Positions 1 to 34,941 of a stretch of DNA of 34,941 nucleotides are shown here, one piece after another (position 1 is the stretch's first letter; each line of letters starts with the position of its first letter). The DNA is from a virus (lineage: Duplodnaviria > Heunggongvirae > Uroviricota > Caudoviricetes). The position numbers and the translations under genes were made by a program. The stretch lies in IMG/VR virus record IMGVR_UViG_2681813316_000026; one strand, written 5' to 3'. Below the pieces are notes generated by a model. That model was given only the letters and a program-made list of their open reading frames with translations. It was not told the origin of the DNA and searched no databases.

Positions 1-495
1 ATGCCATTTGCTCGTTATTTCTGCATTTTCATAAACGTTGGTTTGGGAGAAGGTGCTCCAGCTATTGGCGTTCCGTTCTTCTGGCCGTCCGCTGCAATGC
101 CAAATACTGTAATCGACAGCTGGTCCAGTATGGTGTTTTTGAAGTTCAACGGGGCGAAATTTTCTGCCTCTGATTACCCTGTGCTGGCGAAAGTGTTTCC
201 TTCACTGGTATTACCTGAAGCCCGCGGTGATTTCATTCGTATCTGGGATGATGGGCGAGGGGCGGACAGTGGGCGAGCATTATTAAGTTGGCAGGCAGCA
301 ACAGCTTTATCGCAATTTGGCGGTAATTATCCAGAAGGGTCCGGCCATTCGATTGATAATCACGATGGGATATCAGCACACCACCCAGGTTTCTCTCGAT
401 TTCAGTACACCAGTAACTCAGTAGGAGATGGGGTTAATTTTATTGCCGTCAGACCACGTAACATTGCATTTAACTTTCTGGTGAGGGCTAAATAA
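1..495 (+). CDS. Tail-fibre C-terminal variable segment, alternative copy (Sv'), currently in the silent orientation of the invertible cassette
   Basis: ORF on the strand opposite the fibre gene at 1490-2074. The crossover site at 26-51 lies inside its 5' end and encodes GLGEG, matching GFGEG at the junction in the expressed fibre. Bases 1-25 are the reverse complement of the pin-proximal flank at 31705-31729. Confidence 0.6.
   Translation: MPFARYFCIFINVGLGEGAPAIGVPFFWPSAAMPNTVIDSWSSMVFLKFNGAKFSASDYPVLAKVFPSLVLPEARGDFIRIWDDGRGADSGRALLSWQAATALSQFGGNYPEGSGHSIDNHDGISAHHPGFSRFQYTSNSVGDGVNFIAVRPRNIAFNFLVRAK
26..51. repeat. Invertase crossover site, right inverted repeat (gix/hix-like, 26 bp)
   Basis: Reverse complement reads TTCTCCCAAACCAACGTTTATGAAAA. 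Matches the site at 1772-1797 in inverted orientation and resembles recalled hix/gix sites with a central AA dinucleotide. Confidence 0.6.
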
Positions 496-1088
496 TGAAA
501 CCTGTTTTTGATGAAAATGGACTGGCTACAGTGCCGGGTGATATGCGTTGTTTTTATTATGATGCAGTAACGTATGAATATACGGGCTGGTCTGATGAAT
601 ATATTAATACTGGTGTAAGTATGCCCGCCTGTTCCACTGGTATTGACCCTGGCGAAAACATTCCGGGAAAAGCGGCTGTATTTACAGGTAAGGGATGGAG
701 CCATGAAGAGGACCATCGCAATGAGACTGTTTACTCAATCGAAAATGGCGCAGCTGTTACAGTGGGTTATATCGGTGCTATCAAAAACGGTTATGTCACG
801 CTTTCACCGTTAACGCCATATGATAAATGGGATGGTGAGAAATGGGTGACAGATACTGAGGCACAACACAGTGCCGCAGTAGAAGCGGCAGAAGCACAGC
901 GCCAGTCACTGATTGATGCAGCAATGGCTTCCATCAGTCTGATTCAGCTGAAATTACAGGCCGGACGGAAACTGACTCAGGCAGAAACAACCCGACTTAA
1001 CGCCGTGCTGGATTACATTGACGCGGTGACGGCAACAGATACCAGCACCGCGCCGGATGTCATCTGGCCTGAACTGCCGGAGGCGTAG
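495..1088 (+). CDS. Tail fibre assembly protein (Tfa/U' type), alternative copy
   Basis: Immediately follows the alternative fibre segment. Its 3' end overlaps the convergent tfa at 1060-1488, as in Mu G-segment U/U' pairs. C-terminal TSTAPD.IWP.LP motif is shared with the other Tfa. Confidence 0.7.
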
Positions 1089-1488
1089 GCCATTCAATAT
1101 CGGGTGCTGTTGAAGTATCAACACGCATCAGCAGCACACGGTATTTCTTCCATTCGGTGAGAGTTGAAGTTTCTTCATCAGTTGCGATATCAGCATCAAC
1201 AGCATCCTGACGCCAGGATATTTCACTGTCAGCTTTTTCCCGTAATTGGGATTTTTTAACTTCAGCAATAGCTATTAATTCCTTTTTGGTCGGCTGAGGA
1301 ATATCTATCAGTGCTGGTTTTCCATTCAGTGTTCCAATCTGTTTTCCTGGTGGAATATCCATAAATAACTTTTTATGTTCTTCCTCACTGACTATTACAC
1401 CATCATCAGGCCACAGACCTGATGCCTCAAATTTTTCTTTCTCCGATATGGGGAAAAAGCCATTTGCTTTAGCGCTCCATACGTACAT
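1060..1488 (-). CDS. Tail fibre assembly protein (Tfa/U type)
   Basis: ATG at 1488 directly after the fibre stop. C-terminal [10 protein letters not shown] motif. 5' 269 bp is duplicated at 31127-31395. Confidence 0.7.
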
Positions 1489-1489
1489 A

Positions 1490-2074
1490 TCAATACCCCA
1501 CCGCTATAATGTCCACATTAAATCCCCCGGGACCTGCCTGCCAGATGCTGGCCCCTGTTAATGATTTTGTTTGATGAACAACCGCCACATTTGCTGGCGA
1601 TAGTGTTTCAGTTGTTACAGTACCGATATCATTCCAGTTAATTGAGATGGAATAGTTCGTTGTTGTAAACGACCGGGGGAAAGTTATGTGTCTTGCATTG
1701 GTGCCAACAGGAAATCCAAGATAAACACGCTGAATTATCATTCCTCCAGGTAACATAACCCAGTTAGCACCTTCTCCAAAACCAAGGTTTTCGAGAGCCG
1801 TTTGCACAGTGCCATCCGATTTGATATCGCCAAACGGATTCTTGCGGCTTAACAGCAGCGCGCGAAGTGCGGTAAGTAACTGGTCGTGCCGCCCCTTCTC
1901 CAGGCTGGCACCGGATGCCTCCACCACGCTGCAAAGTTCCTCCTGCAACATGTCAAAGTAGTCATCATCCAGATCGGTGGCAGGCGTGCCGGTCTGGGGG
2001 TTACCACGGGTAAAACCGTTCTTACCCGCGCCGAACTTATCCTTCTGCGCGGTTTTCGTGTCTATACGATGCAT
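1490..2074 (-). CDS. Tail fibre protein: constant N-terminal part joined across the crossover site to the expressed variable C-terminal part
   Basis: Last late gene after the baseplate genes. Crossover site 1772-1797 lies in frame inside the ORF. Sequence downstream of the site (1490-1785) is duplicated at 31397-31692. Confidence 0.7.
1772..1797. repeat. Invertase crossover site, left inverted repeat (gix/hix-like)
   Basis: TTCTCCAAAACCAAGGTTTTCGAGAG, an imperfect palindrome around a central AA. Inverted relative to the site at 26-51. Confidence 0.6.
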
Positions 2075-2077
2075 GGA

Positions 2078-2662
2078 TTACTCCGGATATTTAAAAATTA
2101 CGTAGGTATGCGACGGGCAGAGTTTGTTAAGCACACACTCGACAACGGTGTCACCCCAGATACGCAGTGCGGAATCACAGGGATCGCCACATGTCATCCA
2201 GGTGGAGTTGGTGGTGGCTGGCATGTTGACCTGCCAGTAATACCGCCATTCCGGCGCATTCACCGCGTCAGTACAGGCCGATGAGCAGGTGAAAGTGCTT
2301 TTGTCGTATCGCGTGATGGTGGCATCTGGTCTGCCCAGGGCAGCAAGCTGTGCAAGATAAAAATCCTCGTTGATGCCGCCCGCCAGGTTAACCTTCGCAT
2401 CCAGCCGTTGCTGACGCTGGCGAAGGGTCTGCGTTCCCGCCGGAATACATTCATCCGGCAGACCGCACAGACGCTCCCAGCGGTTTATCAGTTCAGTGGT
2501 GGTGCGCGGATCCAGCTCCCGCATCAGGTCATCCGCACGCTGATGAACACGGGTTAATGACGGTGCCGCACCGGCAATCGCCGGATCGCTGGCTGACCAC
2601 GCCGGACCGGGCGGCAACAGTGCCGATAACAGGCGGATGTAATCATCGTTTGTCACGTCCAT
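2078..2662 (-). CDS. Mu gp48-like tail protein (DUF2313, YmfQ-like)
   Basis: 194-aa ORF between baseplate J and the tail fibre, the position and size of e14 YmfQ / Mu gp48. Overlaps the upstream gene. Confidence 0.65.
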
Positions 2663-3711
2663 GAAATCGTCCCCAGTACCGCCAGTTCGTTTTTCGCAAT
2701 GGAGATATTGTCCACCGGTGCAAGCAACTGATGGCTGTATTCCCCGTTCGCACCGGAAATCGCCTCACTGATACGCGATACCTTGAGTTCTCCCTGCGGA
2801 TAACCATCACGCAGCAGGAACGAACGCAACTCCGCGGTAATGGCAGCCCGTATTTCTGGTGTGTCCGGCGTCACGCGGATATGAAAATCCACCGTATGTG
2901 CCACCGGCCTGAATACATACAAATCAGAGCCTGCCACCGGGGCCAGTGGCCAGATATGTTGTCTTGCTGCCGTTTCCGTTGATTCTTCCGGAATGGGATT
3001 AATCAGGTCACTGCTGGCAATCATCACACCGACAGTTCCCGTTCCCATCCAGTGACGGTATGTCCATGCGCGGGTAATGCCGGGCACTTCTTTAGCCCAG
3101 ACGACATAGTCCCCGTCAGCCCCGCCCTGAGGCGTCCAGTAATACCGCTCAATGACGCGGGCGCGCCACGTTTCCAGCTCTTCAGTATCAAATCCACCTG
3201 TCAGGGTATCTGCCACGCCGGAAGACGGCAGACCATTAACCGGCGTGACCAGGATTAATGACGTACCGTCGTCAGCGTTACCGACCGCGCCTGCACTTGA
3301 GCAGGCGATCGGCACGCGCAGGACACCACCGGAGCTGGTTGCATCGGCAGTTGCCGTGTACTGAACCAGGTCATCGCGCTGAATAACACTCCCGGCGGTC
3401 ACCTTCAGGCCATCGCTGACACCTTCCCAGCGCATATACCCGCTGGCAGCCGTGGCCCCCTTGCGCGGACACCGTTTCATCGCAGCATGTCGCGCCAGCC
3501 AGGACTCATCGCACAGGTCAGGCAGAATGTTCATTGCCAGATAATCGATGTACCCGTAAACCGTATGCAGCGCCGCCGCATACACCTTTGCCCGCACGTC
3601 TTCATCCATGCGCCGGAGCGTGTCGCTGACGTCCAGCCTGGCGAATAAATCGTTACGGAGCATACTGATATTTTCTGCCAGCGTCGGGCGCTGAAATTCA
3701 CTGTCCGCCAT
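2653..3711 (-). CDS. Baseplate J-like protein (Mu gp47 family)
   Basis: 352-aa ORF in the conserved Mu-like order (gp45-gp46-gp47-gp48). Translationally coupled to its neighbours. Confidence 0.75.
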
Positions 3712-4126
3712 GCGTTATCGCACTCCACAGATCATCAAAAGAAATCATTACCGGTCCGTCACGACGCCAGAGAGTGATACTATTACCCAGTTCATTAATC
3801 CCGGTGCGGCGGATATCCAGATCAATACGGGACACCACGCCGTCATCAATCATCCATTGCAGGCATTCGCGGATATACCCCCTTACCGTCTGCACCAGCT
3901 GATTGGTCAGTTTGCTGCGCTGAAGCAGCCACAGTCGGGAGCCGTAACGGTCATTCTGTACCGCAGGCCAGGTATCCCCCCACCATCCCATCGGGACGTC
4001 GGCGTTGTCATCAGGCTCCGCCCGCCGCCAGGTAAACAGGGAAATCACCACGGCGCGGGTCAGCGGATCCAGCGGTGCGCTGGCGCAGGTGCGTTTACCG
4101 TTCACCGTCAGCCACAGTTCCATCAT
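3698..4126 (-). CDS. Baseplate protein (Mu gp46-like)
   Basis: 142-aa ORF between the spike and baseplate J genes, with overlapping start/stop codons. Confidence 0.6.
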   Translation of the reverse strand: MMELWLTVNGKRTCASAPLDPLTRAVVISLFTWRRAEPDDNADVPMGWWGDTWPAVQNDRYGSRLWLLQRSKLTNQLVQTVRGYIRECLQWMIDDGVVSRIDLDIRRTGINELGNSITLWRRDGPVMISFDDLWSAITHGGQ

Positions 4127-4671
4127 GCCTCCATCGCTTTATCAGGTTTGTCGGTGTTACTGCCCTGACCGTTCTCTCTGTGACGATGCCCGTTATAGGC
4201 AAGCCGCATCGCTGACATGGTGGTGCCGCTGGAGTCGCACAGGTCTTTCACCTGTCCTGTCACTTCTAGGTCCATTTCAAAACGTGCTTTAGGTGAATTG
4301 CGAAACGTGATCGTTTTACCTGCACCGTCCACCACGATCCCCTCCCGGGTCAGCGTCACGGACTGCCCCTGATCGTCATAGACCGCCACCTCACCCGTCT
4401 GCAGCCCTTTCAGGCGGTAGCGCCGGTCCGACACCGTAACAACCACCGCATGAGAACGGTCGCCATCCGGAAACAACACCACCGCTTCCGCACCGCTGTT
4501 TGCCCTTGCGGTAAAACCGTAGGGTTCAAGATGTTCAACCCCGGCTTTGGGTTCACCGGCAATCAGGGACACATCCACGGTCTGACATTTCGTGGCGGCA
4601 CTGATGCTTTTCACCACTGCCCGCCCAATCAGGCCGAGAAGTTGTCGCTGCATGGCTTCAATCGTCCTCAT
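4123..4671 (-). CDS. Baseplate assembly protein V / spike (Mu gp45-like)
   Basis: 182-aa ORF at the conserved position after the P-like gene, with a glycine-rich C-terminus. Confidence 0.65.
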   Translation of the reverse strand: MRTIEAMQRQLLGLIGRAVVKSISAATKCQTVDVSLIAGEPKAGVEHLEPYGFTARANSGAEAVVLFPDGDRSHAVVVTVSDRRYRLKGLQTGEVAVYDDQGQSVTLTREGIVVDGAGKTITFRNSPKARFEMDLEVTGQVKDLCDSSGTTMSAMRLAYNGHRHRENGQGSNTDKPDKAMEA

Positions 4672-5750
4672 CAGAACGGGTCCTCCTGTACTCTGGCTTT
4701 TTTCTTTTTCCGCGCGCCGGGGGCTTCGGGTTCAGGCAGATAAGCATCAGGCGGGCCGACACGGATTTCCGTCAGGGTGCCGTTCTGGTCCTGAGTAAAC
4801 GTGACTTCCGAAACAAGCAGTTCGGTATTGTCGAAACCACAGACCGGATCAAAGACAATCACCCGCTGGTTGGGCTGCCACAGCGTACCGTTACCCTGTC
4901 GCCAGCCCTGCACCACATAGGTGGTTTCATCCGTTCGCGCCGCCCGTTGCCGGGCTTCAAAGTCAGCACGCGCAATACAGCCAGCCCCCGTGGCCTGCCC
5001 TGTCTGCCTGATATACATCGGACGGTAACGGGCAATAAATGCGTCCTCTGTGCGGGCCCGCAGCGCGGTGGTGGTGGCCTCACCGAAATCATCGTCGTTT
5101 CCGGCACGCTGCCCCGCCACCTGGTAAACAGAAAACCGCTCCCGGATACTCTTCTCCGTATCGCAGGAAAGGATGTTTTCCCCGAGTACCAGCGCAGTAT
5201 GTGCCCGCGTTGAGCCAATACCACCAATCACCAGCCTGCCGTGCGGGTCGTCGTAAGCCAGTGCCTGCTGCTGACCGAGTATTTTGTTGATTACCTCAAT
5301 CACCGTTTCACCGTGATCGGGCTGGACGTCAGGAATAACACCCGACGGCGCACCGTTGTTCACCACCTCAATGCCGAAAGGCGCAGCAAGCGCCTGCGCA
5401 ATCTGTACCAGCGATCGTCCGTTAAACTGTGTCGGTTCGGCTGCACAGTCAATCAGGTCAGCAGTCAGACTACGTCCGGCAATACCGGTGCTGACCGAAC
5501 GGGCATCGTAACGAACGGGGGTCGCCTCCACCCAGCCGGTGATCACCAGCTCATCACCAATCAGCACTTCCACTTTTGAACCATTTTTAATGCGCGGCTG
5601 AAGCGTGGTGATACCCTCATCTCCCGGCCACTGGCGGGTGATCTCCACGCTGAAATCCCGCGCCAGCCGTTCAATACCGGCACCGATGCGCACCGATGTC
5701 CAGCCATTCCACTCCCGGCCATTTACCCGTAGCGTGACATTGTCGTTCAT
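4671..5750 (-). CDS. Mu P-like tail/baseplate hub protein (gp44 family)
   Basis: 359-aa ORF following the DNA-circularisation gene with a 4-bp overlap, as in the Mu N-P pair. Confidence 0.7.
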   Translation of the reverse strand: MNDNVTLRVNGREWNGWTSVRIGAGIERLARDFSVEITRQWPGDEGITTLQPRIKNGSKVEVLIGDELVITGWVEATPVRYDARSVSTGIAGRSLTADLIDCAAEPTQFNGRSLVQIAQALAAPFGIEVVNNGAPSGVIPDVQPDHGETVIEVINKILGQQQALAYDDPHGRLVIGGIGSTRAHTALVLGENILSCDTEKSIRERFSVYQVAGQRAGNDDDFGEATTTALRARTEDAFIARYRPMYIRQTGQATGAGCIARADFEARQRAARTDETTYVVQGWRQGNGTLWQPNQRVIVFDPVCGFDNTELLVSEVTFTQDQNGTLTEIRVGPPDAYLPEPEAPGARKKKKARVQEDPF

Positions 5751-7075
5751 TGCACTGGCACCTTCAGAGGGATCACCGGCACAAAGCCGGGATGCGTAAT
5801 GGCATTACGCCGGATAATGTCCGCGTCACGCGCCGCGTTATCAAACCAGGTCGCCGCCAGCACCAGCGCGGGTAAAACCTCATCCGGCGTGCGCTGAATG
5901 ATCCGAGCAGACTGTTCAAGGCGCGTGTTGATATCCGCATTCAGATCTGCTTTCACCCGGCGCAGCGCCAGAAACAGCGCATCACTGGTTGTACGGGACA
6001 ACTCCTTATCAATTGCCATATTCAGTGTGTCGCGAATGTCGGTCAGTTCTTCCCACGTTGGCAGGTCAACCGTGTTTTTCACCGCCGGTGCATTGTTCAG
6101 CACCGGATGCGTGACGGCAGGCCAGCCGGAGCTCTGCGCGGGTGTTGTTGACTGCCCCACTGCGGCATTCTGCATCACCGCAGAAGTTGTTGGCGCAGGC
6201 AATCGGGTAACGGCATACGCCGCTTCGCTGATTGCGGTCGTACGAAGGGTGCTGGCAACCACGTTACGCTGCTGCGTCGCCGTGGCGGTGGTTTTACTGT
6301 CCGTTTTCCAGACGCCGCGCGGTTGCAGATCGCTGCCGAGGCTGACACCGGAAAGCGTTTTGATCATGGTGACCAGGTCGCTGGCGTTACCATAAAGGCG
6401 TTTCCCGGTACGCCACATTTTCTGCACCTGCTCAACGAAATTTTTGCCTGACGATGGCGGCGGCAGAAGTACCGAGATATCCCCCTGCAACAGCCTGGCG
6501 GCATCCGATACGGCAGAATCCACCACTTTCATCGCATCAGAAACATACCCAAGCATTGTGCTGGCATTACCGACGACATCGTTCTGCACAAAATCTGCCA
6601 CGCCATCGATACTGAAACTACTGAAACTGTCACTGATGCAGTCATCCAGTGCAGAACAGGATGACATCAGCGTCTGCGCCGTCGCCGCACCTGATGTGGG
6701 GTAAGAGAGTTCTCCTGCTTCGACAAACTTCAGGTCAAAGCGGACAATACGCCCTTCACTTTTCGATGTGCTGACCCGAACTTCCCCGTCAACACAGACT
6801 TTCAGCTCACCATATGTCGGGTGGACAAGCGTGCCGGGACCGGGTTTATTCAGCGCTTCAATCAGGCGATCGCGCTGGTCAAAGCAGTCATCTCCCACCA
6901 CATAAGCTGTGATGGACGGGCGGAAAGTGACTTTTCCCAGATCTTCGGTATAGGGCTTGTCGCGGTTCGGGTATTCATGTGTTTCCACACGGCGACCAGT
7001 TCCCGCACTTTCTTCTTCAACCTTAAACGGCACACCTCGAAATGACGCATCCTGAAGCCTGTCTTTCCACGTCAT
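5747..7075 (-). CDS. DNA circularisation protein (Mu N / gp43-like)
   Basis: N-terminal region resembles the Mu N family. Probable true start is the ATG at 7075 (the track ORF begins at a GTG at 7081). A GGAG ribosome-binding site sits 7 nt upstream. Confidence 0.7.
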   Translation of the reverse strand: MTWKDRLQDASFRGVPFKVEEESAGTGRRVETHEYPNRDKPYTEDLGKVTFRPSITAYVVGDDCFDQRDRLIEALNKPGPGTLVHPTYGELKVCVDGEVRVSTSKSEGRIVRFDLKFVEAGELSYPTSGAATAQTLMSSCSALDDCISDSFSSFSIDGVADFVQNDVVGNASTMLGYVSDAMKVVDSAVSDAARLLQGDISVLLPPPSSGKNFVEQVQKMWRTGKRLYGNASDLVTMIKTLSGVSLGSDLQPRGVWKTDSKTTATATQQRNVVASTLRTTAISEAAYAVTRLPAPTTSAVMQNAAVGQSTTPAQSSGWPAVTHPVLNNAPAVKNTVDLPTWEELTDIRDTLNMAIDKELSRTTSDALFLALRRVKADLNADINTRLEQSARIIQRTPDEVLPALVLAATWFDNAARDADIIRRNAITHPGFVPVIPLKVPVQ

Positions 7076-7085
7076 ATACACTCCG

Positions 7086-7116
7086 AAAATAAAAAAGCCA
7101 CCTATTAGAAGGTGGC
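7086..7116 (-). terminator. Rho-independent terminator closing the moron transcription unit
   Basis: Minus-strand hairpin GCCACC-N8-GGTGGC followed by TTTTTTATTTT, 20 nt downstream of the 7137-7667 stop and abutting the RBS of the next tail gene. Confidence 0.6.
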
Positions 7117-7136
7117 CTTGTAATGAATTTTATTAA

Positions 7137-7667
7137 TTAGCGAGTCAGAAACAACGAATCTTTATACTTTTGCTGTTGTTCATTTAAATACTTAGCTGTT
7201 TCATCGCTGGCAAATGGAAATATTACCGTATTTTTAGGCATGGTAATTTCTTTTTTGTCCAGCGTCAGAGTAAACATAGGAACATACTGAGCAGAGTAAC
7301 GCACCGCAGAAACGAGCTCTAGTTTAGACTCTTCAATAACACTTAAATTATCCAGGCTAACTTTCTCTTCATCTTTTTTCTTTGACGCATTTAAAGTTTT
7401 TATTACTTTATTTAATTTCTCCTGAAAATCCTCCTTAAAGTTTTCAGGATTGCCGTCGACAACAAGAATCTGTTCACCCTGATTATCTGGAAAAATAATC
7501 TTTGCACTTATCAATTTATTTTCTTTATAAACATCACCAAGTTTTATGGCTCCTCCAGATAACTGAATAATATGTTCATCTTTAAAGGAGATGTTGCCAG
7601 AGATTATGAGAGATGAAAAAATAGCCGCTGCTCCAAGAATTACACTTGCTGTGATATAGCCTTTCAT
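7137..7667 (-). CDS. Moron: AT-rich gene for a signal-peptide or membrane-anchored protein of unknown function
   Basis: 176-aa ORF with a hydrophobic N-terminus (MKGYITASVILGAAAIFSSLIISG) and a lysine/glutamate-rich body. GC content is visibly lower than the flanking tail genes. Has its own AT-rich upstream region and its own terminator. Confidence 0.6.
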   Translation of the reverse strand: MKGYITASVILGAAAIFSSLIISGNISFKDEHIIQLSGGAIKLGDVYKENKLISAKIIFPDNQGEQILVVDGNPENFKEDFQEKLNKVIKTLNASKKKDEEKVSLDNLSVIEESKLELVSAVRYSAQYVPMFTLTLDKKEITMPKNTVIFPFASDETAKYLNEQQQKYKDSLFLTR

Positions 7668-7758
7668 TTTTCGCCTATTAACATTTTTCTAAATGTGCAT
7701 TAATTCTATCACTCTATTTATGACTTACAACCAGCAATACATGTGAGGGGAATCCTGG

Positions 7759-9591
7759 CTACCAAAATCGGGTATAGCCAACATCGTGATTTATATCAAT
7801 GCCACTGGAGCGTGTTTCCGTAACCCGCATACCTGGTGGCATATTTATAAATGATACCTTGATCTCACCATCAACTTTTGGCGCGGTAGCTTTATTAATC
7901 ATGAAGGGATTCGAGCCTGTGGCATCGGAGGCGTTGTTTGCCTGAGCCGGATCCACCGCCGGATAAGGAGTGTATCCCCGTGCCGGTATTCCCGTCCCAT
8001 AAGCATCATAAGCACCCGCGCCCCACTGCGCAGAGTTAATGGCATCGACCGTGTCACCGGAACTGTCGGTAAACCACTCAATAATCGGCTTCAGCTTGTC
8101 CCACATATCCTGAAACCACTTAACAACCGGCCCCCAGTTATTGATCACCATCCCCATCGGCGACCAGGCAAAAACTTTCTTAAGGAGTTCCCAGCCAGCC
8201 TCAAAATAAGGACCAATGGTTTCCCAGAGCTTCTTGAAATAAGGTCCGACAACATCCCAGTTAGTGATAATTAATCCCGCAGCCAGGGCTATCGCCGTCG
8301 CAATCATGCCAATCGGCGTCATCGACATGATCCTGCTGACAATGCTGATGGCACTGCCCACGCCCATCAATCCCAGTTTCAGAATCGCAAGACCGGCAGC
8401 AAGCCCGACGACGCCGCGAATAACCCGGGGATTTTCATCCGCAAACTTCGTGAATTTTTCCCCCAACTCCCCCAGCCATTGCGTGATATTTTTGGCGTCA
8501 CCAGAAAATGCGCCGCCAATAGCCGCAAGGCCGTTAGTTGCGGTCCCCGTCATTGCCTCCCACAGGTTGGACAGCGTACCAAGCTGTGCCTGAACACGTT
8601 TATTCAGGCTGGCCTGTTTATTCATCTTTTGCTGGATCTGATCGTAACCATCCTTTCCTTTATCGATCAGCGCATTGACCACCTGAAGGGTTTCGGCATC
8701 ATCACCAAATATTGCCTTAAGTACACCTGTTCGCTTAACGTCGGTAAGTTTTCGCAGCTTTGCCAGTTGCTTAAACATGTTATCAAGACCGCCAAAACTT
8801 CCTTTGCCGTCAGTAAAATCGAGCTGTACCCCGAGTTTCTGACGGGCCATAACTTTATTGACGTCCCTGATTTTCTTAACGCTTAATCCGGACTGGATAA
8901 CTTTTCGCAGGGCATTACCTGCCGACTCCCCGTTCATCCCCATCTGATCCATCATGACGCTGATGGGGGCAAGGCTCTGTGCAGCCTGAAGACCGTCCTT
9001 GTTCACCATCTTCAGAACAGAACTGGTTTTAGTGAAGAAGGACAACATGTTGGTATCGTCAACGCCCAGATAAAACGCCTTCTGGATAGTGTCGAACAGC
9101 CCCATCATGTCTTCTGACGCCGTTCCGGTAGCATCCTGCATCTTTGCAGCAAACTCAGCAGCCGCTTCCGGTGTTTTTTTCAGTTGTACCGCAAGATAAG
9201 CTGTCGCTTTACCCACACCGCCAAGAATATTTTCTGCCGGGATCCCCTGACGCACCAGCATCTGCATCATGTTCTGGAAATCAGCCGTTGTACCGGGTAG
9301 CTGGTTACCCAGGCCAATAGCCAGTTTATTGATGTCCTGAAAGCTCTTTCCGACCTCGCCGTTCGCATCCATCATGGCGACTTTCAGCCCGGTGGCGGCG
9401 TTTTCCTGATCGGCATAAGATTTCAGGGAAAGCGTCAGACCCGCTGCCAGTCCGCCACCAAGCGCCAGCCCACCCTGTGATGCTTCTTCCGCCTGGCGTT
9501 TAAATCCCCGGATTTTCTTTTGCATTTTCGACAGCGCGGGAGAAAGTCTGTCGACACCGGTGATCAACGCCTTAAGCTCAAATTCAGCCAT
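7759..9591 (-). CDS. Tail tape measure protein
   Basis: 610-aa ORF immediately after the frameshifted chaperone pair, with Gly/Ala-rich hydrophobic stretches typical of tape measure proteins. Confidence 0.85.
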   Translation of the reverse strand: MAEFELKALITGVDRLSPALSKMQKKIRGFKRQAEEASQGGLALGGGLAAGLTLSLKSYADQENAATGLKVAMMDANGEVGKSFQDINKLAIGLGNQLPGTTADFQNMMQMLVRQGIPAENILGGVGKATAYLAVQLKKTPEAAAEFAAKMQDATGTASEDMMGLFDTIQKAFYLGVDDTNMLSFFTKTSSVLKMVNKDGLQAAQSLAPISVMMDQMGMNGESAGNALRKVIQSGLSVKKIRDVNKVMARQKLGVQLDFTDGKGSFGGLDNMFKQLAKLRKLTDVKRTGVLKAIFGDDAETLQVVNALIDKGKDGYDQIQQKMNKQASLNKRVQAQLGTLSNLWEAMTGTATNGLAAIGGAFSGDAKNITQWLGELGEKFTKFADENPRVIRGVVGLAAGLAILKLGLMGVGSAISIVSRIMSMTPIGMIATAIALAAGLIITNWDVVGPYFKKLWETIGPYFEAGWELLKKVFAWSPMGMVINNWGPVVKWFQDMWDKLKPIIEWFTDSSGDTVDAINSAQWGAGAYDAYGTGIPARGYTPYPAVDPAQANNASDATGSNPFMINKATAPKVDGEIKVSFINMPPGMRVTETRSSGIDINHDVGYTRFW

Positions 9592-9766
9592 GTGTGCGTT
9601 TCTCCTGCTCTATCCTGTTTGCCTGACTGACCAGCAAGGGAATTTCACTGATCGGCATATTCAGCAATTCGAAGGGATTAATGCGCCAGTAACTGGCGCA
9701 GTCAAAGAAGCGATCAGTGAGGTATTCAGCCGTCAGGCCTGGAGGAAAAAACCGGCCACAAGCCAC
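9584..9766 (-). CDS. Tail assembly chaperone, -1 frameshift extension
   Basis: Sits in the -1 frame relative to 9733-10002 and overlaps its 3' end. A slippery heptamer T_TTT_TTC lies in the overlap (plus-strand 9743-9752). Confidence 0.5.
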   Translation of the reverse strand: MACGRFFPPGLTAEYLTDRFFDCASYWRINPFELLNMPISEIPLLVSQANRIEQEKRTHG

Positions 9767-10002
9767 GCCGCTGCATTCAGGTCTGCCGGAGACATCTGGT
9801 CGACAGAGCTTTGCGGCACTTTCGCCAGCCGCACAATGTATTTCGACACCACATGCGCCAGAAGTCTGACGGACTCATCCTGATTCATCTGGTAGGGATA
9901 CCCCAGCTCGCGGACATCCTTCCCGGTGGGTTCATCAAACTCCAGTACGGAAAGTGTCTCACCATGAGCGATAATCGGTTTCTTTAACTCAAGCTCTTTC
10001 AT
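9733..10002 (-). CDS. Tail assembly chaperone (upstream frame)
   Basis: 89-aa ORF between the tail tube and tape measure genes, the standard chaperone position. Confidence 0.6.
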   Translation of the reverse strand: MKELELKKPIIAHGETLSVLEFDEPTGKDVRELGYPYQMNQDESVRLLAHVVSKYIVRLAKVPQSSVDQMSPADLNAAAWLVAGFFLQA

Positions 10003-10358
10003 TACTGGTAATCCCCTTCTTCACCGTGGAACTCAAGATCAACCGTGCCTTCTTCGGCATTATGGTTCGCTTCGCCGTGCAGCCAGGCGGACGACAATAC
10101 ATAGACCTGACCGTTCGCCAGCTCGGCAGTGATGGTCATCTCATCAGACGAGGTGATTTTGCTCACCGGAAAATTCTTCGGCACCTTGAAGGTCCCTTTG
10201 ACATAAGGCGCACGGTGAGTTTCCTTGCGGTCCACTGAACCGTCCAGGCCGATGATGTCATCATTGACCGTCCTGTTCATGGGCACCTCAATGCCGCCGG
10301 TCAGCGATAGCTGCTGACCGTCAATTTTGAAATAACAGGTTCCCCCGATACGGGCCAT
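10002..10358 (-). CDS. Tail tube protein (Mu gpM-like)
   Basis: 118-aa ORF directly downstream of the sheath gene with a 1-bp overlap. Confidence 0.75.
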   Translation of the reverse strand: MARIGGTCYFKIDGQQLSLTGGIEVPMNRTVNDDIIGLDGSVDRKETHRAPYVKGTFKVPKNFPVSKITSSDEMTITAELANGQVYVLSSAWLHGEANHNAEEGTVDLEFHGEEGDYQ

Positions 10359-11854
10359 TATGCAGACTCCTCTGAATACTGAAGACGGAACTGGTTAACC
10401 ACGGCAAAGACACGCAACTGGTTAACATAGTCAGGCGGGAACAGCGTGTTCAGGCGGTTCGGATCGCTGGCATCACGCTCCACAACCAGGTACTGCTTAA
10501 ACAGTTCGTAGTTTTCCACGATCCCCGCACGCTCAAGCTGACGGTAGGTTGCCAGCAGTTCCCCTTTGATCACCGCCGGTGTGACAATCGCCTGACCGGG
10601 ACCAAAGCGGGTACCGTCGCTGGCAAGCTTGTGACGCCCGTACTTACTGGTAATGACGGATTTCAGTTTGCGCAGCACATACGCGCTGGTATGCAGCGTC
10701 TCGCTGTCGAGGTAGCTGTTATCCGCAACACCGTAAGCGTTTTTCCTGTACGTGGTGACATCACGCTGAATGCGCAGCACCCCGCTTTCGACATACGCCG
10801 TTGCCACGCCATGAGACAGCAGGGTCTGTTGTTCGGTCATCGTGAACCGTTTCCCCTTCGGCGCAGGCAGCATCCCCACCAGCTCACCGGTCTGCGTGGG
10901 ACGTGCCGGATCGTTGCGAATAAACACCGCTGCGCGGGCGGTACGGCTTGCCGCCAGCTCGTCGGCAGGCGTCTGGGTCTCTTTTTCGTATCCCGCCAGG
11001 GTAATGTGCTGCTGGTTAAACTGGTCACCTGCGGTCACCAGTTCTGACAGCGTGCCGATCTTTGCCGTATACACATGACCATACAGCTGACGCGCATAGC
11101 TCCAGCGACCGCTGGTATCGTTCATCTCGGTCACCAGCGTGTTAACGGAGGCTGTGTCGTTGAACGGCAGGCCGATATAATCAAACGGCTCATCCGCCAT
11201 TGCAGCCACCGCGCCGGTGAGAACAGGAGCGCCCGTTCCGGCGGTACCCGTCGCCACGGCAATCTGTACGCCCGCTGGCAGCACTTCGCCCCCACCAAAG
11301 CCGTAGTAATTGAGGCTGACAGGAATTTCATTCCCGCAAAGCCCCTTATGACGCGCGGTCAGTGTGACCACGCCTGCCGAAGATGAGGCAGTAAACGGCA
11401 GGGTCGGAACGGCATTGATGGCATCCTGGATACTGCTGGCAATCGTCGCAACGTTATCGCCGTTGGTCACCGGTGCCTGCACGCGGGTACGTCCCACATA
11501 AACATTCACCGTGCCGGTTTCGGTTGCCGCGCCGGTCACCGTCAGCGTAACCGTTGCCGCCGCGCCCGTGGATTCAGGAACGGCAATCACATACAGCTCG
11601 CCAAACGGGTCGGTCTGGCGATAAGCCTCGACCATACGCGCCAGCTGACTTCCCGCACCACAAATCTGGCGTGCATAGTCTGCCGACGGCATCAGTACCA
11701 GACTGTTGGCAACAATCTCTGCACCGTTATTGGCATGACCAATCAGCAGCGATGCTCCGCTGTCCTGTGCAGTATTCGCCGCCTGATTATCCATTTCCGC
11801 ATAAAACAGCGGAACCAGCGTATTCGACGGAATGGTGTTAAAGCTTATCGTCAT
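10358..11854 (-). CDS. Tail sheath protein (contractile tail)
   Basis: 498-aa ORF with ATG at 11854, placed sheath-tube-chaperone-tape measure. Confidence 0.85.
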   Translation of the reverse strand: MTISFNTIPSNTLVPLFYAEMDNQAANTAQDSGASLLIGHANNGAEIVANSLVLMPSADYARQICGAGSQLARMVEAYRQTDPFGELYVIAVPESTGAAATVTLTVTGAATETGTVNVYVGRTRVQAPVTNGDNVATIASSIQDAINAVPTLPFTASSSAGVVTLTARHKGLCGNEIPVSLNYYGFGGGEVLPAGVQIAVATGTAGTGAPVLTGAVAAMADEPFDYIGLPFNDTASVNTLVTEMNDTSGRWSYARQLYGHVYTAKIGTLSELVTAGDQFNQQHITLAGYEKETQTPADELAASRTARAAVFIRNDPARPTQTGELVGMLPAPKGKRFTMTEQQTLLSHGVATAYVESGVLRIQRDVTTYRKNAYGVADNSYLDSETLHTSAYVLRKLKSVITSKYGRHKLASDGTRFGPGQAIVTPAVIKGELLATYRQLERAGIVENYELFKQYLVVERDASDPNRLNTLFPPDYVNQLRVFAVVNQFRLQYSEESA

Positions 11855-26901: not shown

Positions 26902-27389
26902 TAAGCCCCCACGTAATTCCCTGACAGATACCACTCTTCACCCGATGCAGCGCGCTTGCTGCTTTTCCGTAAGCACCGCTCACGACGCGCCAGAAAATTG
27001 TTTCGTTCTGGCTGGGAGTGGCTTTCACGGAATGCCGCCATCCACACGGTTGCAGCACGACGGTATAAGCCCCTGGACTCCAGTTCTTCCGCCTGGCGGG
27101 TCAGGCACAAAATCACACGGGGATCGTTAGTGCCGACATAGAAATTGCGCACAGGTCTGGTTTCACGAACTGGTTGTGGTTCCGGTTCCTGCGCTCTCTC
27201 AGTCAGGCGCGGGAAATGTCTGCGTGTATCTCCTTCACAACGGTGAGCCACACGCCCACTCTGACGTAACTTGCTTGCTGACTGCAGAACGCGCTGCCGT
27301 GAGTAACCGGCAAAAGCATCCGCAATATCTCCGGAAGTACAGCCCGGATGGGCTTCAATGAATTTCTGAACGTCATTCAAAAGACTCAT
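26901..27389 (-). CDS. Hypothetical protein in the replication module
   Basis: Probable start ATG at 27389 (MSLLNDVQKFIEAHPG). Overlaps the 3' end of the initiator gene. Confidence 0.4.
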   Translation of the reverse strand: MSLLNDVQKFIEAHPGCTSGDIADAFAGYSRQRVLQSASKLRQSGRVAHRCEGDTRRHFPRLTERAQEPEPQPVRETRPVRNFYVGTNDPRVILCLTRQAEELESRGLYRRAATVWMAAFRESHSQPERNNFLARRERCLRKSSKRAASGEEWYLSGNYVGA

Positions 27390-28332
27390 GCTCACCCCTG
27401 AATCCTGCCGGGATCTGGCTGTAGTCCACGTTGTCGTAACTGGCTTTGAAGTACGGGTCTTCGCGTTTTTCGGTGTACGTGCTGACGGACGGCGATAAGC
27501 GCAGGGAAAGCTCATCCCATTTTTCCCGCAGCTTCGACGGGCTGAGCACGTTACGGCACCAGAACGGATCGCGACTGACGCGGCTGTACATCTCGCAGAT
27601 TTGTTTATGAGTACGACCATCCTGCACACACATCAGGCGAATTTCGTTTGCCCAGGCTGTCCAGTTCGGTTCTTTGGGACGAACCACCTCGCCGTCACAT
27701 TCGGCGGCCTGCTCGTACAGGGCGATGATTTTTTTCCAGAGCCACTGTGCGCAGGTCAAATCATCCTGCGTTCCCCACTGGCGCTTTTTAGGGCTGAATA
27801 CAACCGCATCAGGATGGCGAGTTAAAAACTCCTGTTCAGCCGTCTGCGTGTCCGGTTGCGAAGCGTCCGGACGAGAAGTTTTTTTATCTGACGGATCATG
27901 TTTTGATTTTACTGACGGATCCCCGCCAGATTCTGACGGGTGAAAACCCGCTTTTTTGCCAGATTTCGACGCATCAAATTTTGACGGGTCAGATTTTGAT
28001 GCGTCAGATTTTGACGGGTCAGAATCTGACAGTTGAGAAAATGCCGCTGCCTGAAGCTTCGCAACGTTAAGCTGATAAACATTCGACGCATTGCGGTTAC
28101 CCTGGCGACGCGCCTTACGCGTTAACCAGCCTTCTGCTTCCAGCCGTGCGATAGCCGTTCTGACGGTACTCATTCCCGCGCCAATCTGGCGGGCAATGGT
28201 TTCAATTGATGGCCAGCACACACCTTCGTCATTACTGAAATCAGCCAGGCGGGCCATAATTGCCACGCTGGATAATTTCATGCCTGATGCAGCGCAACCA
28301 TCCCATACATAGCCGGTTAATTTAGTGCTCAT
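27373..28332 (-). CDS. Replication initiation protein (lambda O-like) carrying the origin iterons
   Basis: N-terminal winged-helix-like region, a central low-complexity SDxSKSD repeat encoded by DNA iterons, and a Trp-rich C-terminal domain. Confidence 0.6.
   Translation of the reverse strand: MSTKLTGYVWDGCAASGMKLSSVAIMARLADFSNDEGVCWPSIETIARQIGAGMSTVRTAIARLEAEGWLTRKARRQGNRNASNVYQLNVAKLQAAAFSQLSDSDPSKSDASKSDPSKFDASKSGKKAGFHPSESGGDPSVKSKHDPSDKKTSRPDASQPDTQTAEQEFLTRHPDAVVFSPKKRQWGTQDDLTCAQWLWKKIIALYEQAAECDGEVVRPKEPNWTAWANEIRLMCVQDGRTHKQICEMYSRVSRDPFWCRNVLSPSKLREKWDELSLRLSPSVSTYTEKREDPYFKASYDNVDYSQIPAGFRGEHESFE
27880..28040. repeat. Iteron array: putative origin of replication inside the initiator gene
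   Basis: At least five direct repeats of a TGACGG(G/A)T-containing unit interleaved with the palindrome TGACGCATCA. Confidence 0.5.
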
Positions 28333-30875: not shown

Positions 30876-31126
30876 TTGATTTTCCTTTTATGTATACGGG
30901 CTTAAAAGGATACCACCGAGCCTGAAGTGGTGAAAAGACAGGCACATAACAGCTAAGTATTTTCAACCAAAGAGAATCCTTAGCGTTGTGGTGAATGCGG
31001 CTCAGCGCACGCGGGTTAAGGTTGAGGCTGACAGTCGACCTTCTGTGGATACCCACCCGCCTGGTGTGCAACCTTCGCCAGGCACCGGGAGGCACCCGGC
31101 ACCACAACTTTATGCTGTGTGTAGTC

Positions 31127-31395
31127 ATTTCACTGTCAGCTTTTTCCCGTAATTGGGATTTTTTAACTTCAGCAATAGCTATTAATTCCTTTTTGGTCGG
31201 CTGAGGAATATCTATCAGTGCTGGTTTTCCATTCAGTGTTCCAATCTGTTTTCCTGGTGGAATATCCATAAATAACTTTTTATGTTCTTCCTCACTGACT
31301 ATTACACCATCATCAGGCCACAGACCTGATGCCTCAAATTTTTCTTTCTCCGATATGGGGAAAAAGCCATTTGCTTTAGCGCTCCATACGTACAT
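31127..31395 (-). pseudogene. Truncated tail fibre assembly gene (5' 269 bp only)
   Basis: Near-identical to 1220-1488. Homology stops at 31127; the track ORF 30865-31395 continues into unrelated sequence with a non-protein-like tail. Confidence 0.65.
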
Positions 31396-31396
31396 A

Positions 31397-31732
31397 TCAA
31401 TACCCCACCGCTATAATGTCCACATTAAATCCCCCGGGACCTGCCTGCCAGATGCTGGCCCCTGTTAATGATTTTGTTTGATGAACAACCGCCACATTTG
31501 CTGGCGATAGTGTTTCAGTTGTTACAGTACCGATATCATTCCAGTTAATTGAGATGGAATAGTTCGTTGTTGTAAACGACCGGGGGAAAGTTATGTGTCT
31601 TGCATTGGTGCCAACAGGAAATCCAAGATAAACACGCTGAATTATCATTCCTCCAGGTAACATAACCCAGTTAGCACCTTCTCCAAAACCAACGTTTATG
31701 AAAATGCAGAAATAACGAGCAAATGGCATCAT
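31397..31732 (-). CDS. Tail-fibre variable C-terminal segment, duplicate of 1490-1785, joined to the pin-proximal flank
   Basis: Residues after the GFGEG crossover junction are identical to the expressed fibre at 1490-1785. The first 13 codons derive from the pin flank. Confidence 0.6.
   Translation of the reverse strand: MMPFARYFCIFINVGFGEGANWVMLPGGMIIQRVYLGFPVGTNARHITFPRSFTTTNYSISINWNDIGTVTTETLSPANVAVVHQTKSLTGASIWQAGPGGFNVDIIAVGY
31679..31704. repeat. Recombinant (hybrid) crossover site
   Basis: TTCTCCAAAACCAACGTTTATGAAAA: left half identical to the site at 1772-1797, right half to the inverted site at 26-51, i.e. the product expected from invertase-mediated exchange. Confidence 0.6.
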
Positions 31733-31758
31733 TCCTGCTTTTGTCAGAGGGATCCACT

Positions 31759-32313
31759 ATGCTTATTGGCTATGTACGCGTATCAACAAATGACCAGAAC
31801 ACCGATCTACAACGTAATGCGTTGAACTGTGCAGGATGTGAGCTGATTTTTGAAGACAAGATAAGCGGTACAAAGTCCGACAGACCAGGACTGAAAAAGC
31901 TGCTCAGGACATTATCGGCAGGTGACACGCTGGTGGTCTGGAAACTGGACCGACTGGGACGCAGTATGCGGCATCTTGTCGTGCTGGTGGAGGAGTTGCG
32001 CGAACGAGGCATCAACTTTCGTAGTCTGACGGATTCAATTGATACCAGTACCCCAATGGGGCGCTTTTTCTTTCATGTGATGGGTGCCCTGGCTGAAATG
32101 GAGCGTGAACTGATTGTTGAACGAACAAAAGCTGGACTGGAAGCAGCTCGCGCACAGGGACGAATTGGTGGACGTCGCCCCAAACTTACACCAGAACAAT
32201 GGGAGCAGGCTGGACGATTAATTGCATCAGGCGTTCCTCGCCAGAAGGTGGCGATCATCTATGATGTTGGTATATCGACACTGTATAAGAAGTTTCCGGT
32301 CGGAGATAAATGA
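31759..32313 (+). CDS. pin: Serine DNA invertase of the Pin/Gin/Hin family
   Basis: Starts MLIGYVRVSTNDQNTDLQRNAL (catalytic serine in the YVRVS motif), with a C-terminal HTH. About 184 aa, GAGGGA ribosome-binding site, directly adjacent to the crossover site. Confidence 0.9.
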   Translation: MLIGYVRVSTNDQNTDLQRNALNCAGCELIFEDKISGTKSDRPGLKKLLRTLSAGDTLVVWKLDRLGRSMRHLVVLVEELRERGINFRSLTDSIDTSTPMGRFFFHVMGALAEMERELIVERTKAGLEAARAQGRIGGRRPKLTPEQWEQAGRLIASGVPRQKVAIIYDVGISTLYKKFPVGDK

Positions 32314-32373: not shown

Positions 32374-33243
<870 letters not shown>

Positions 33244-34755: not shown

Positions 34756-34941
34756 TTAAGTTAACGTTACCCGCTGACGTCGATATTCTCGCAGAGAGCG
34801 ATAACCCAACGCACTGTGCGGATGGTTTTCATTGTAATGTTCGATCGCCACTGCAAGATTATGCAATGCCGTTCTTACATTCGGTTTCGGCATGAACGCG
34901 ATGTAGTCTTCCTTCATCGTTTTCACGAACCTTTCTGCCAT
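34756..34941 (-). mobile_element. IS-element transposase fragment (C-terminal end of a DDE integrase-core domain)
   Basis: 61-aa ORF ending ...[18 protein letters not shown], resembling the C-terminus of IS3-type transposases. The rest of the transposase is not in the window. Confidence 0.5.

Follow-up and report, generated by a model that had tools for sequence, protein, structure and literature searches.

The left end of the window (the whole stretch of viral DNA analysed here, 34,941 nt; IMG/VR record IMGVR_UViG_2681813316_000026) carries the host-range switch of an SfV/e14-type myovirus prophage of E. coli. This invertible cassette is very probably a Pin-type allele of the e14 P segment, with the pin gene located elsewhere in the window as its invertase (Table 1). 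The system is already known and ordinary, being a close relative of the long-known P segment of K-12 e14. Within positions 1-2074 are a constant fibre region, two inverted 26 bp sites and two convergent pairs of variable segment and chaperone. An earlier note, made from the sequence alone, had described a complete Gin/Pin-type cassette with both crossover sites at the coordinates given here, and all of its features were found to be present.

Table 1. Features of the invertible cassette, the pin locus and the duplicated region in the window.
Feature	Position	Strand	Description
Pin-proximal flank	1..25	.	Short leader of silent ORF 1-495; inverted copy of 31705-31729
Crossover site A	26..51	-	Minus strand reading TTCTCCCAAACC AA CGTTTATGAAAA; Sv′ half-site plus pin half-site
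Sv′	52..495	+	Silent alternative fibre C-terminal segment; in ORF 1-495
tfa′	495..1088	+	Tail-fibre assembly chaperone paired with Sv′, 197 aa; Pfam Caudo_TAP, E=1.6e-27
tfa	1060..1488	-	Chaperone, 142 aa, for the currently expressed Sv; Pfam Caudo_TAP, E=1e-33
Sv	1490..1771	-	Currently expressed fibre C-terminal segment; Gp53-like_C, PF21882, E=1.7e-5, residues 108-194
Crossover site B	1772..1797	+	TTCTCCAAAACC AA GGTTTTCGAGAG; Sv half-site plus Sc half-site
Sc	1798..2074	-	Constant N-terminal part of the fibre gene; residues 1-98 100% identical to K-12 StfP/YcfK
Breakpoint J	31126..31127	.	Early-region gene upstream of yfdP joined head-to-tail to mid-tfa
Direct duplicate of 1220-1785	31127..31692	-	First 269 nt of tfa, the complete Sv and its half-site as far as the central AA
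Crossover site C	31679..31704	+	TTCTCCAAAACC AA CGTTTATGAAAA; Sv half-site of B plus pin half-site of A
pin	31759..32313	+	Serine DNA invertase, 184 aa; Resolvase PF00239, E=1.3e-51, and HTH_7 PF02796, E=3.9e-13

The architecture is that of an in-frame fusion, in which a constant fibre N-terminus can be joined to alternative C-termini, each with its own Caudo_TAP chaperone. The fibre ORF (2074 to 1490, minus strand, 194 aa) is open across 1772-1797, and Sc lies directly downstream of a Mu gp48-like baseplate gene (2078-2662, gp48 Pfam match). On the plus strand, ORF 1-495 reads INVGLGEGAPA across 26-51. Its Sv′ part, which becomes fibre residues ~101-248 when the segment is inverted in silico, shares 43% identity with K-12 StfE and shows a weak, below-threshold Pfam match to the Collar domain, while the PF21882 match to Sv exceeds the curated cut-off. 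The genes tfa and tfa′ are convergent and overlap by 29 nt.

The two crossover sites overlap a 25 nt inverted repeat (33-57 and 1766-1790) that is 92% complementary. A sequence shared by them, TTCTCCNAAACCAANGTTT, has three perfect matches in the window: 33-51 (minus strand), 1772-1790 (plus) and 31679-31697 (plus). In dinucleotide shuffles searched with a tolerance of up to three mismatches it occurred at a mean of 0.12 copies, and 0/100 shuffles reached three, ruling out a chance inverted repeat. Sites A and B, both imperfect dyads, are inverted relative to each other with a central dinucleotide of AA/TT in both, and all three copies (A, B and C) are intact and have the central AA in common. 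Alignment of the 26 bp sites with validated ones had been set beforehand as a point on which the earlier reading could fail, and it held: site A is identical at 26/26 positions to the pinE-proximal e14 site of K-12, and site B at 25/26 to the site on the stfP side. The half-sites also align with gixL and gixR of Mu, with a common core AAACC..GGTTT. The repeat published for e14, TTGGTTTGGGAGAAGG (PMC12529663), is contained in site A.

The match of bases 1-25 to the flank of pin, which had already been pointed out, proved to be part of a longer one. Bases 1-57 are an inverted copy of 31673-31729 at 98% identity, the sole mismatch being base 45 in the inner half-site, and bases 1-7 are the reverse complement of 31723-31729, the start of a long ORF (31723-32313) that contains pin. 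A further 51 identical nt follow the 1-25 flank in the source contig, where the 57 nt inverted repeat grows to 108 nt with one mismatch.

The sole complete invertase gene in the window is pin. Its product shows 96% identity to PinE of K-12 and 81% to Gin of Mu, and retains the N-terminal motif MLIGYVRVST, with the serine motif YVRVST. The first 200 nt of the gene match K-12 pinE at 187/200 positions and Mu gin at 145/200, and by analogy with related systems this 5′ part is expected to carry the predicted Fis-dependent enhancer. A gene for a LEM-3-like GIY-YIG protein adjoins pin. The earlier note had suggested a probable invertase gene just left of the window, and as stated this was not supported: the contig extends only 51 nt leftward, and as these nt are the reverse complement of the 5′ end of the same pin, they make a second invertase on that side unlikely. 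With its serine invertase, inverted sites that align with validated ones and both orientations on record, the cassette belongs to the Gin/Pin/Hin/Cin (Din) group.

Transcription of the late operon would read through Sc, across the 26 bp site and into one of the two C-terminal segments together with its own chaperone. Pin would pair the two inverted sites and exchange strands at the central AA/TT dinucleotide, a reaction that, as for Gin and Hin, would need Fis and the enhancer in the 5′ end of pin, and 1,746 bp (39-1784) would be inverted. Such a flip would convert Sc::Sv (194 aa, with a Gp53-like tip and the 142 aa chaperone) to Sc::Sv′ (248 aa, with the 197 aa chaperone), and the segment not fused to Sc would sit beside pin behind a short leader.

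The proposed swap of the fibre C-terminus and its chaperone was borne out when the segment was flipped in silico, as the fibre stays in frame at 248 aa and is followed by the 197 aa tfa′ product. The flipped sequence is present at 100% coverage in at least 12 complete genomes, and natural loci in the flipped state have the 248 aa fibre gene and the predicted hybrid sites. The orientation seen in the window occurs in seven complete genomes at 100% coverage and in one more at 98% (H8), so that both orientations are represented among complete E. coli genomes. We infer that switching is active in this strain, and the presence of sites A and C in one assembly points to heterogeneity of orientation in this isolate. 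It is very unlikely that the cassette is a frozen relic, its sites and genes persisting with no inversion in this strain. Strain I4, in which the same cassette accompanies a pinE truncated by IS26, would favour such a state, and there only a different Pin acting in trans could keep the cassette from being locked. Here, however, pin and its serine motif are conserved, the three site copies are intact with their common central AA, the recombinant site C is part of the same assembly, and near-identical cassettes occur in both orientations across genomes.

Gene order is the same as in e14 (stfP/ycfK, tfaP, tfaE, stfE, pinE), as is the baseplate context, with ymfQ/gp48 upstream, and the flank and leader are near-identical. 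The variable modules, in contrast, are different alleles: the Gp53-like Sv is only weakly similar to its e14 counterpart, the chaperones here are of 142 and 197 aa, and the segment is 1,746 bp compared with 1,797 bp in e14. The surrounding prophage looks complete and is SfV/SfII-like (97% identity across the morphogenesis genes), whereas e14 is a 15 kb remnant. Its canonical relatives sit at thrW/pao and e14 at icd, and the cargo gene beside pin is the LEM-3-like GIY-YIG gene in place of the mcrA of e14. The P segment of e14 has been inverted experimentally, by PinE, PinQ and PinR, and both forms coexist in clonal cultures (PMC12529663, PMC4272514). The cassette would give one prophage virions with two alternative receptor-binding tips. 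The homologous K-12 switch has recently been linked to defence against phage T2 (PMC12529663), and nothing in the present cassette alters that picture.

Beyond what the earlier note had described, the window holds a third crossover site, a 566 nt duplicate (31127-31692) and a breakpoint at 31126/31127 (J). The duplicate is identical to 1220-1785 at 566/566 positions and its identity ends right after the crossover dinucleotide. Site C is an exact A x B recombinant, and in genomes with the flipped state the same hybrid site adjoins pin. The complete pin adjoins site C, 31.6 kb from site A, and the flank of A holds only the first 22 nt of a pin ORF, after which the source contig ends; in canonical relatives pin is directly beside site A. 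Compared with the canonical genome XJ55, the path of the window is collinear to 31126, jumps back on the same strand to 1220, and switches strand at site C into the pin flank.

Alignment across J revealed no microhomology, no shared k-mer and no Ns. The junction was not found in 5,426 complete E. coli genomes or, by exact searches, in viral, GTDB-representative and metagenome collections. The gene collection holding the source contig, CYBQ01000013.1, has no record of either of the two ORFs crossing it. Reading 31127-31692 as an inverted duplication was rejected, as the repeat is direct and J is therefore head-to-tail, and models based on inversion were dropped for the same reason. The contig was not reproduced by a simple inversion between the early gene and mid-tfa, by staggered inversion, by a tandem dilysogen with inversion, or by deletion between head-to-head prophages. 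A simple deletion remnant, with the early region joined to tfa-pin, does not fit the strands of the canonical order, and neither Pin acting at a pseudo-site nor an IS end accounts for J, which lacks an AAACC/GGTTT core, an IS terminus and microhomology.

The source contig matches window positions 1-10495 at its positions 52-10546 with 0 mismatches, and starts 51 nt to the left of base 1. Together with window positions 1-44, these 51 nt form an exact 95 nt reverse copy of the 5′ end of pin (31686-31780). The exact run ends at the first difference between Sv and Sv′, a pattern characteristic of a de Bruijn graph branching onto one and the same pin node. At the other end, the right-hand copy of pin runs unbroken into unique chromosome (AraC, IS remnant), and the AraC/GIY-YIG/IS flank recurs in XJ55 and in a sister assembly (CXZY01000007.1), both of which are canonical in layout with a single pin. 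No canonical relative examined has two pins at this locus. There is probably one pin locus, arranged as in XJ55 in the order pin, site, cassette, site, Sc. The layout of the window would then represent a walk through an assembly graph that held both pin-proximal junctions, A (pin/Sv′) and C (pin/Sv), since both orientations would have coexisted in the sequenced culture, and the head-to-tail junction from 31126 to 1220 would stem from tandem duplication or circularisation of the 29.9 kb segment 1220-31126.

Taken literally as one molecule, the contig requires that no less than the first 22 nt of pin and its flank be repeated to the left of the window, and would imply a second pin, or its 5′ end and flank, in inverted orientation. 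A prophage body of 31.6 kb would then lie between the inverted sites A and C, and recombination by Pin could flip the 1.7 kb cassette (through A x B) or the entire prophage (through A x C). Were the assembled distances true, with pin physically 30-31.6 kb from A and B, switching could be inefficient. The sequence does read this way as deposited, the 57 nt inverted repeat lengthens in the source contig to 108 nt with a single mismatch, and J is seamless, like a real junction. Even so, such a molecule is unlikely: the contig stops one k-mer length (95 nt exact) into the shared sequence, as if both ends met one pin node, the unbroken right-hand copy is unexpected for a long two-copy pin repeat, canonical relatives lack a second pin, and more rearrangement events are needed than in the single-locus model.

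Ambiguity in the graph is not enough to produce J, at which no k-mer is shared, so that a real rearranged molecule or a chimeric join is required. J is fairly likely to be real DNA. That it is purely an artefact of assembly or scaffolding, the true genome being canonical as in XJ55 with only the flipping of the cassette real, is rather unlikely. Short-read assemblies are known to be disrupted by invertible cassettes, J is unique to this draft assembly, its two spanning ORFs are missing from the gene collection, and in another phage record (ON470584.1) an invertase and mcrA lie directly against a truncated fibre gene and the cassette is missing. De Bruijn misjoins, however, normally occur at shared k-mers, and J has neither shared sequence nor Ns. 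For scans of genomes this calls for caution, as draft assemblies of invertible cassettes retain recombinant junctions, duplicated nodes and contig ends, and such traces can mimic extra sites or extra invertases.

It is improbable that the deposited layout exists physically in some or all of the population, having arisen by a 29.9 kb head-to-tail duplication (1220-31126) and then by recombination, through Pin, of the pin-proximal site with the fibre site of the second copy. If 31126/31127 were real in this form, it would document Pin action over tens of kilobases after prophage duplication. A Din-family invertase would have flipped ~31.6 kb of prophage, leaving two prophage copies head-to-head around a shared cassette, or the body between inverted pix sites, and the StfE2-like leader::Sv ORF would be fixed permanently beside pin.

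That ORF, of 111 aa (31732 to 31397), is formed by the duplicate and its flank and is of the StfE2 type. Inversion in e14 creates StfE2, the stfE leader joined to the Gp53-like C-terminus of StfP, which is reported to lower T2 adsorption (PMC12529663). The function in the lysogen might accordingly lie not, or not only, in virion host range but in this putative StfE2 counterpart, a role suggested by the published effect, by the same leader (MMPFARYFCIFINVGFGEG compared with MPFACYFFIFINVGLGEG) and by the Gp53-like_C domain of the window ORF. Such a role seems improbable here, as its variable domain and the K-12 StfP domain are only distant relatives, and the prophage, unlike e14, looks morphogenetically complete, so that the classical host-range role is sufficient.

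Among other known systems, the G segment of Mu with Gin (and likewise the C segment of P1 with Cin) follows the same logic of Sc, gix, Sv-U / U′-Sv′, gix and gin, and the prophage has Mu-like baseplate genes gp45-48. The Mu segment spans ~3 kb and has a long fibre (S, 504 aa), whereas the fibre here is short (194 or 248 aa), and Mu has TC/GA as its central dinucleotide in place of AA/TT. The Hin/hix system of Salmonella shares the invertase family and 26 bp site architecture, and has the Fis/enhancer mechanism of the Din family, but Hin inverts a promoter rather than a coding-sequence fusion and has no fibre or chaperone cargo. PinE is able to invert the Salmonella H segment (PMC12529663). A shufflon (Rci tyrosine recombinase, 19 bp sfx sites, pilV) was rejected, the cassette having a serine invertase, 26 bp pix-type sites and phage fibre cargo.

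With three site copies (A, B and C) in a single sequence, the window resembles multiple-inversion systems such as Min of p15B and the multi-site cassettes of some P2-like prophages (PMC4272514). It differs in that site C brings along no further variable segment: what lies beside it is Sv duplicated exactly, and its two half-sites are those expected from A x B recombination. Shuffling of multiple segments of the Min type was rejected. Exact copies of the 111, 142 and 197 aa products are found beside a 197 aa invertase in P2-like prophages (L009, L014, L019, L022-L024 and L026). In these prophages a P2 H-type fibre (373-465 aa, Phage_tail_fib) supplies the constant region and the invertase is a different allele, showing horizontal exchange of the Sv/tfa/tfa′/Sv′ module at the crossover site.

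The cassette at the left end of the window belongs to the Din family of DNA-inversion systems, and is specifically an allele of the P segment of e14 (the invertible stfP/stfE fibre cassette of that E. coli K-12 cryptic prophage, with invertase PinE). Its constant region, crossover sites, flank and invertase are the same as those of e14, whereas the variable and chaperone modules differ. Residues 1-98 of the fibre show 100% identity to K-12 StfP, and similarity collapses directly past the GxGEG motif. The expressed C-terminal segment (Sv, 1490-1771) carries a Gp53-like_C domain by Pfam domain search, the silent alternative (Sv', 52-495) is 43% identical to StfE, and the invertase shares 96% identity with PinE and 81% with Mu Gin. 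A system of this kind, with its mechanism and biology, is textbook material; RefSeq annotation of relatives already assigns pinE, tail fiber assembly protein and phage tail protein. All coordinates that an earlier note had assigned to the cassette features were borne out when ORFs, repeats and sites were re-examined.

Features of the invertible fibre cassette, its invertase, and a gene pair in P2-like prophages
Feature	Position	Strand	Description
Fibre ORF	2074->1490	-	194 aa; downstream of Mu gp48-like baseplate gene; reads across site 1772-1797
tfa	1488->1060	-	Caudo_TAP chaperone, 142 aa; after fibre ORF
Alternative-segment ORF	1-495	+	reads ...INVGLGEGAPA... across 26-51
tfa'	495-1088	+	second Caudo_TAP gene, 197 aa; after ORF 1-495
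Site A	26-51	read on -	TTCTCCCAAACC AA CGTTTATGAAAA
Site B	1772-1797		TTCTCCAAAACC AA GGTTTTCGAGAG
Site C	31679-31704		TTCTCCAAAACC AA CGTTTATGAAAA
Leader::Sv ORF	31397-31732	-	111 aa; pin-flank leader and Gp53-like Sv domain
Invertase (pin)	31759-32313		Resolvase and HTH_7 domains; only invertase in window
PycTM and cyclase-like pair	L017 4222-6124; L021 4918-6820; L022 14711-16613		in P2-like prophages with the cassette

A 25-nt inverted repeat pairs 33-57 with 1766-1790, and the motif TTCTCCNAAACCAANGTTT occurs in three copies in the window with 0 mismatches; in shuffled controls allowing up to 3 mismatches the mean was 0.12, and 0/100 shuffles reached three. The 26-bp site copies were compared after splitting at the central dinucleotide. 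Site A is identical to the e14 site adjoining pinE (TTCTCCCAAACC AA CGTTTATGAAAA), and site B differs by one base from the e14 site inside stfP (reverse complement, TTCTCCCAAACC AA GGTTTTCGAGAG). The Mu gix sites (TTATCCAAAACC TC GGTTTACAGGAA and TTCCTGTAAACC GA GGTTTTGGATAA) have the AAACC..GGTTT core in common with the window sites. Site C is composed of the Sv half of B and the pin half of A.

Gin and Hin act in a synapse with an enhancer that is bound by Fis and lies in the 5' end of the invertase gene, strand exchange taking place at a 2-bp core. By analogy, the same synapse and 2-bp-core exchange would operate on the window cassette. The first 200 nt of pin match pinE at 187/200 positions. 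Strand exchange performed in silico at the central dinucleotide inverts 39-1784 (1,746 bp) and keeps the reading frame. The earlier interpretation of the cassette was right, as was the consequence given there, namely that inversion would swap the fibre C-terminus together with its chaperone. The computed flipped state has a 248-aa fibre, in which the constant N-terminus (1798-2074) is joined to Sv', followed by tfa', and Sv now follows the pin-proximal leader, forming a 110/111-aa ORF. This arrangement is found in many E. coli contigs, with pin, the exact 111-aa ORF, the 142-aa and 197-aa chaperones and the 248-aa fibre gene, and alignment to CP101858.1 shows both hybrid sites as predicted by the exchange. 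The flipped sequence has full-length matches in at least 12 complete genomes, and the window orientation occurs in seven at 100% coverage and in an eighth (H8) at 98%. Experiments have shown that PinE, PinQ and PinR invert the homologous e14 segment, and both of its forms occur together in clonal cultures (PMC12529663; PMC4272514).

The exact 111-aa leader::Sv protein was present in 47 blocks of a public gene collection. K-12 StfE2 has the same architecture and is reported to block T2 adsorption (PMC12529663), and by analogy the pin-proximal ORF may act likewise against other phages.

The invertase gene lies inside the window, and its placement just left of base 1 in the earlier note is unsupported, if not wrong. 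Window 1-10495 equals 52-10546 of CYBQ01000013.1 (draft assembly GCA_001284265.1) with 0 mismatches, so that contig extends just 51 nt to the left of base 1. This 51-nt extension is the reverse complement of window 31730-31780, a stretch that takes in the opening 22 nt of the pin ORF. From the first base of the contig the exact match runs for 95 nt and ends at window base 45, the first difference between the Sv' and Sv half-sites. Such a contig end is expected from a de Bruijn assembler where two paths converge on one node, and the simplest reading of the left flank is therefore that the assembly reaches one and the same pin locus from the opposite orientation. This is supported by the hybrid composition of site C and by a 566-nt direct copy of 1220-1785 to its left (31127-31692, 100%), in which identity stops exactly past the central AA. 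Bases 1-57 and 31673-31729 are inverted copies (98%).

E. coli XJ55 shows the gene order IS remnant, AraC, GIY-YIG, pinE, site, cassette, site, constant fibre region, late genes, early genes, cI, ..., int, tRNA-Thr, proA; in a sister assembly, CXZY01000007.1, the fetched locus runs from the IS remnant into the tail genes and agrees with this order. The window is collinear with XJ55 over 1-31126, returns from there, without a change of strand, to the equivalent of window 1220, and at the crossover site crosses to the other strand, which leads through pin, GIY-YIG and AraC to the IS remnant. The strand switch is an ordinary Pin recombinant junction. At the breakpoint J (31126|31127) an early-region gene located upstream of yfdP runs into mid-tfa without microhomology, and this junction was not found in 5,426 complete E. 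coli genomes or in viral, GTDB-representative and metagenome contig collections. Taken literally, the sequence would place another pin on the left and set inverted sites at both ends of the entire 31.6-kb prophage, which is possible but requires more events and fits the contig end less well than a single locus. We prefer one pin locus, which is quite probable, with both cassette orientations in the sequenced DNA, which would account for sites A and C both being present. J, which is probably real DNA and not a chimeric join, would then be a head-to-tail junction from tandem duplication or circularisation of 1220-31126, through which the assembler walked. The unique J, with the duplicated Sv and tfa 5' part, is the sole unusual element, and is either a strain-specific duplication seen via the assembly graph or an artefact.

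An ATG stands exactly at each extreme of the window, that of a + strand ORF on the left and that of a 61-aa integrase-core fragment (34756-34941, - strand) on the right, so the limits look as if a provirus prediction had cut at gene calls and do not resemble biological ends. Inside the window there is neither an integrase nor an att site of the prophage; in relatives both lie beyond the point matching the 31126 breakpoint.

The morphogenesis genes are ~97% identical to those of Shigella phages SfII, SfI, SfIV and SfV, the lineage from which the remnant e14 derives. P2-like prophages (loci L009, L014, L019, L022-L024 and L026, cassette at ~9.4-12.6 kb in each) also have this Sv/tfa/tfa'/Sv' module, its 111-, 142- and 197-aa products being identical, fused to P2 H-type fibre genes (373-465 aa) beside a different invertase allele (188-197 aa). 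This shows that modules are exchanged at the crossover site, which is their boundary, and that the cassette travels between tail types that are unrelated. In loci L017, L021 and L022, P2-like prophages with the cassette carry, between tail gene S and baseplate gene V, a PycTM gene together with a cyclase-like gene that has weak Guanylate_cyc/AGS_C matches; the pair may be Pycsar-type defence cargo.

In E. coli I4 (NZ_CP195978.1, locus L002, 5073-5971) pinE is truncated by an IS26 belonging to a qnrB19/tet(A) resistance region, so the cassette must be fixed in one orientation unless some other Pin works on it in trans; this prophage is also cut by IS3/IS1 just past ymfQ. In the phage record vB_EcoM-689R6 (ON470584.1, 'partial genome'; locus L027, 1-2900) a DNA invertase and mcrA directly adjoin a truncated side-tail-fibre gene, without the cassette, and host genes (icd and others) occupy the other end; here, too, the assembly seems to have been broken at an invertible fibre cassette.

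Directly downstream of pin, a LEM-3-like GIY-YIG nuclease gene (32374-33198, - strand; PF22945, E=2.4e-14) holds the position of mcrA in e14, and for this reason may serve as cargo or in defence; in XJ55 the gene carries a frameshift. Tandem repeats of ~15 nt (CAGATTTTGACGGGT-like), reported as four overlapping 30-nt copies at a 15-nt offset, lie at 27960-28034 within a - strand ORF (27373-28332) that is a helix-turn-helix replication-type gene in relatives, and look like origin iterons inside an initiator gene, by analogy with lambda O/ori.
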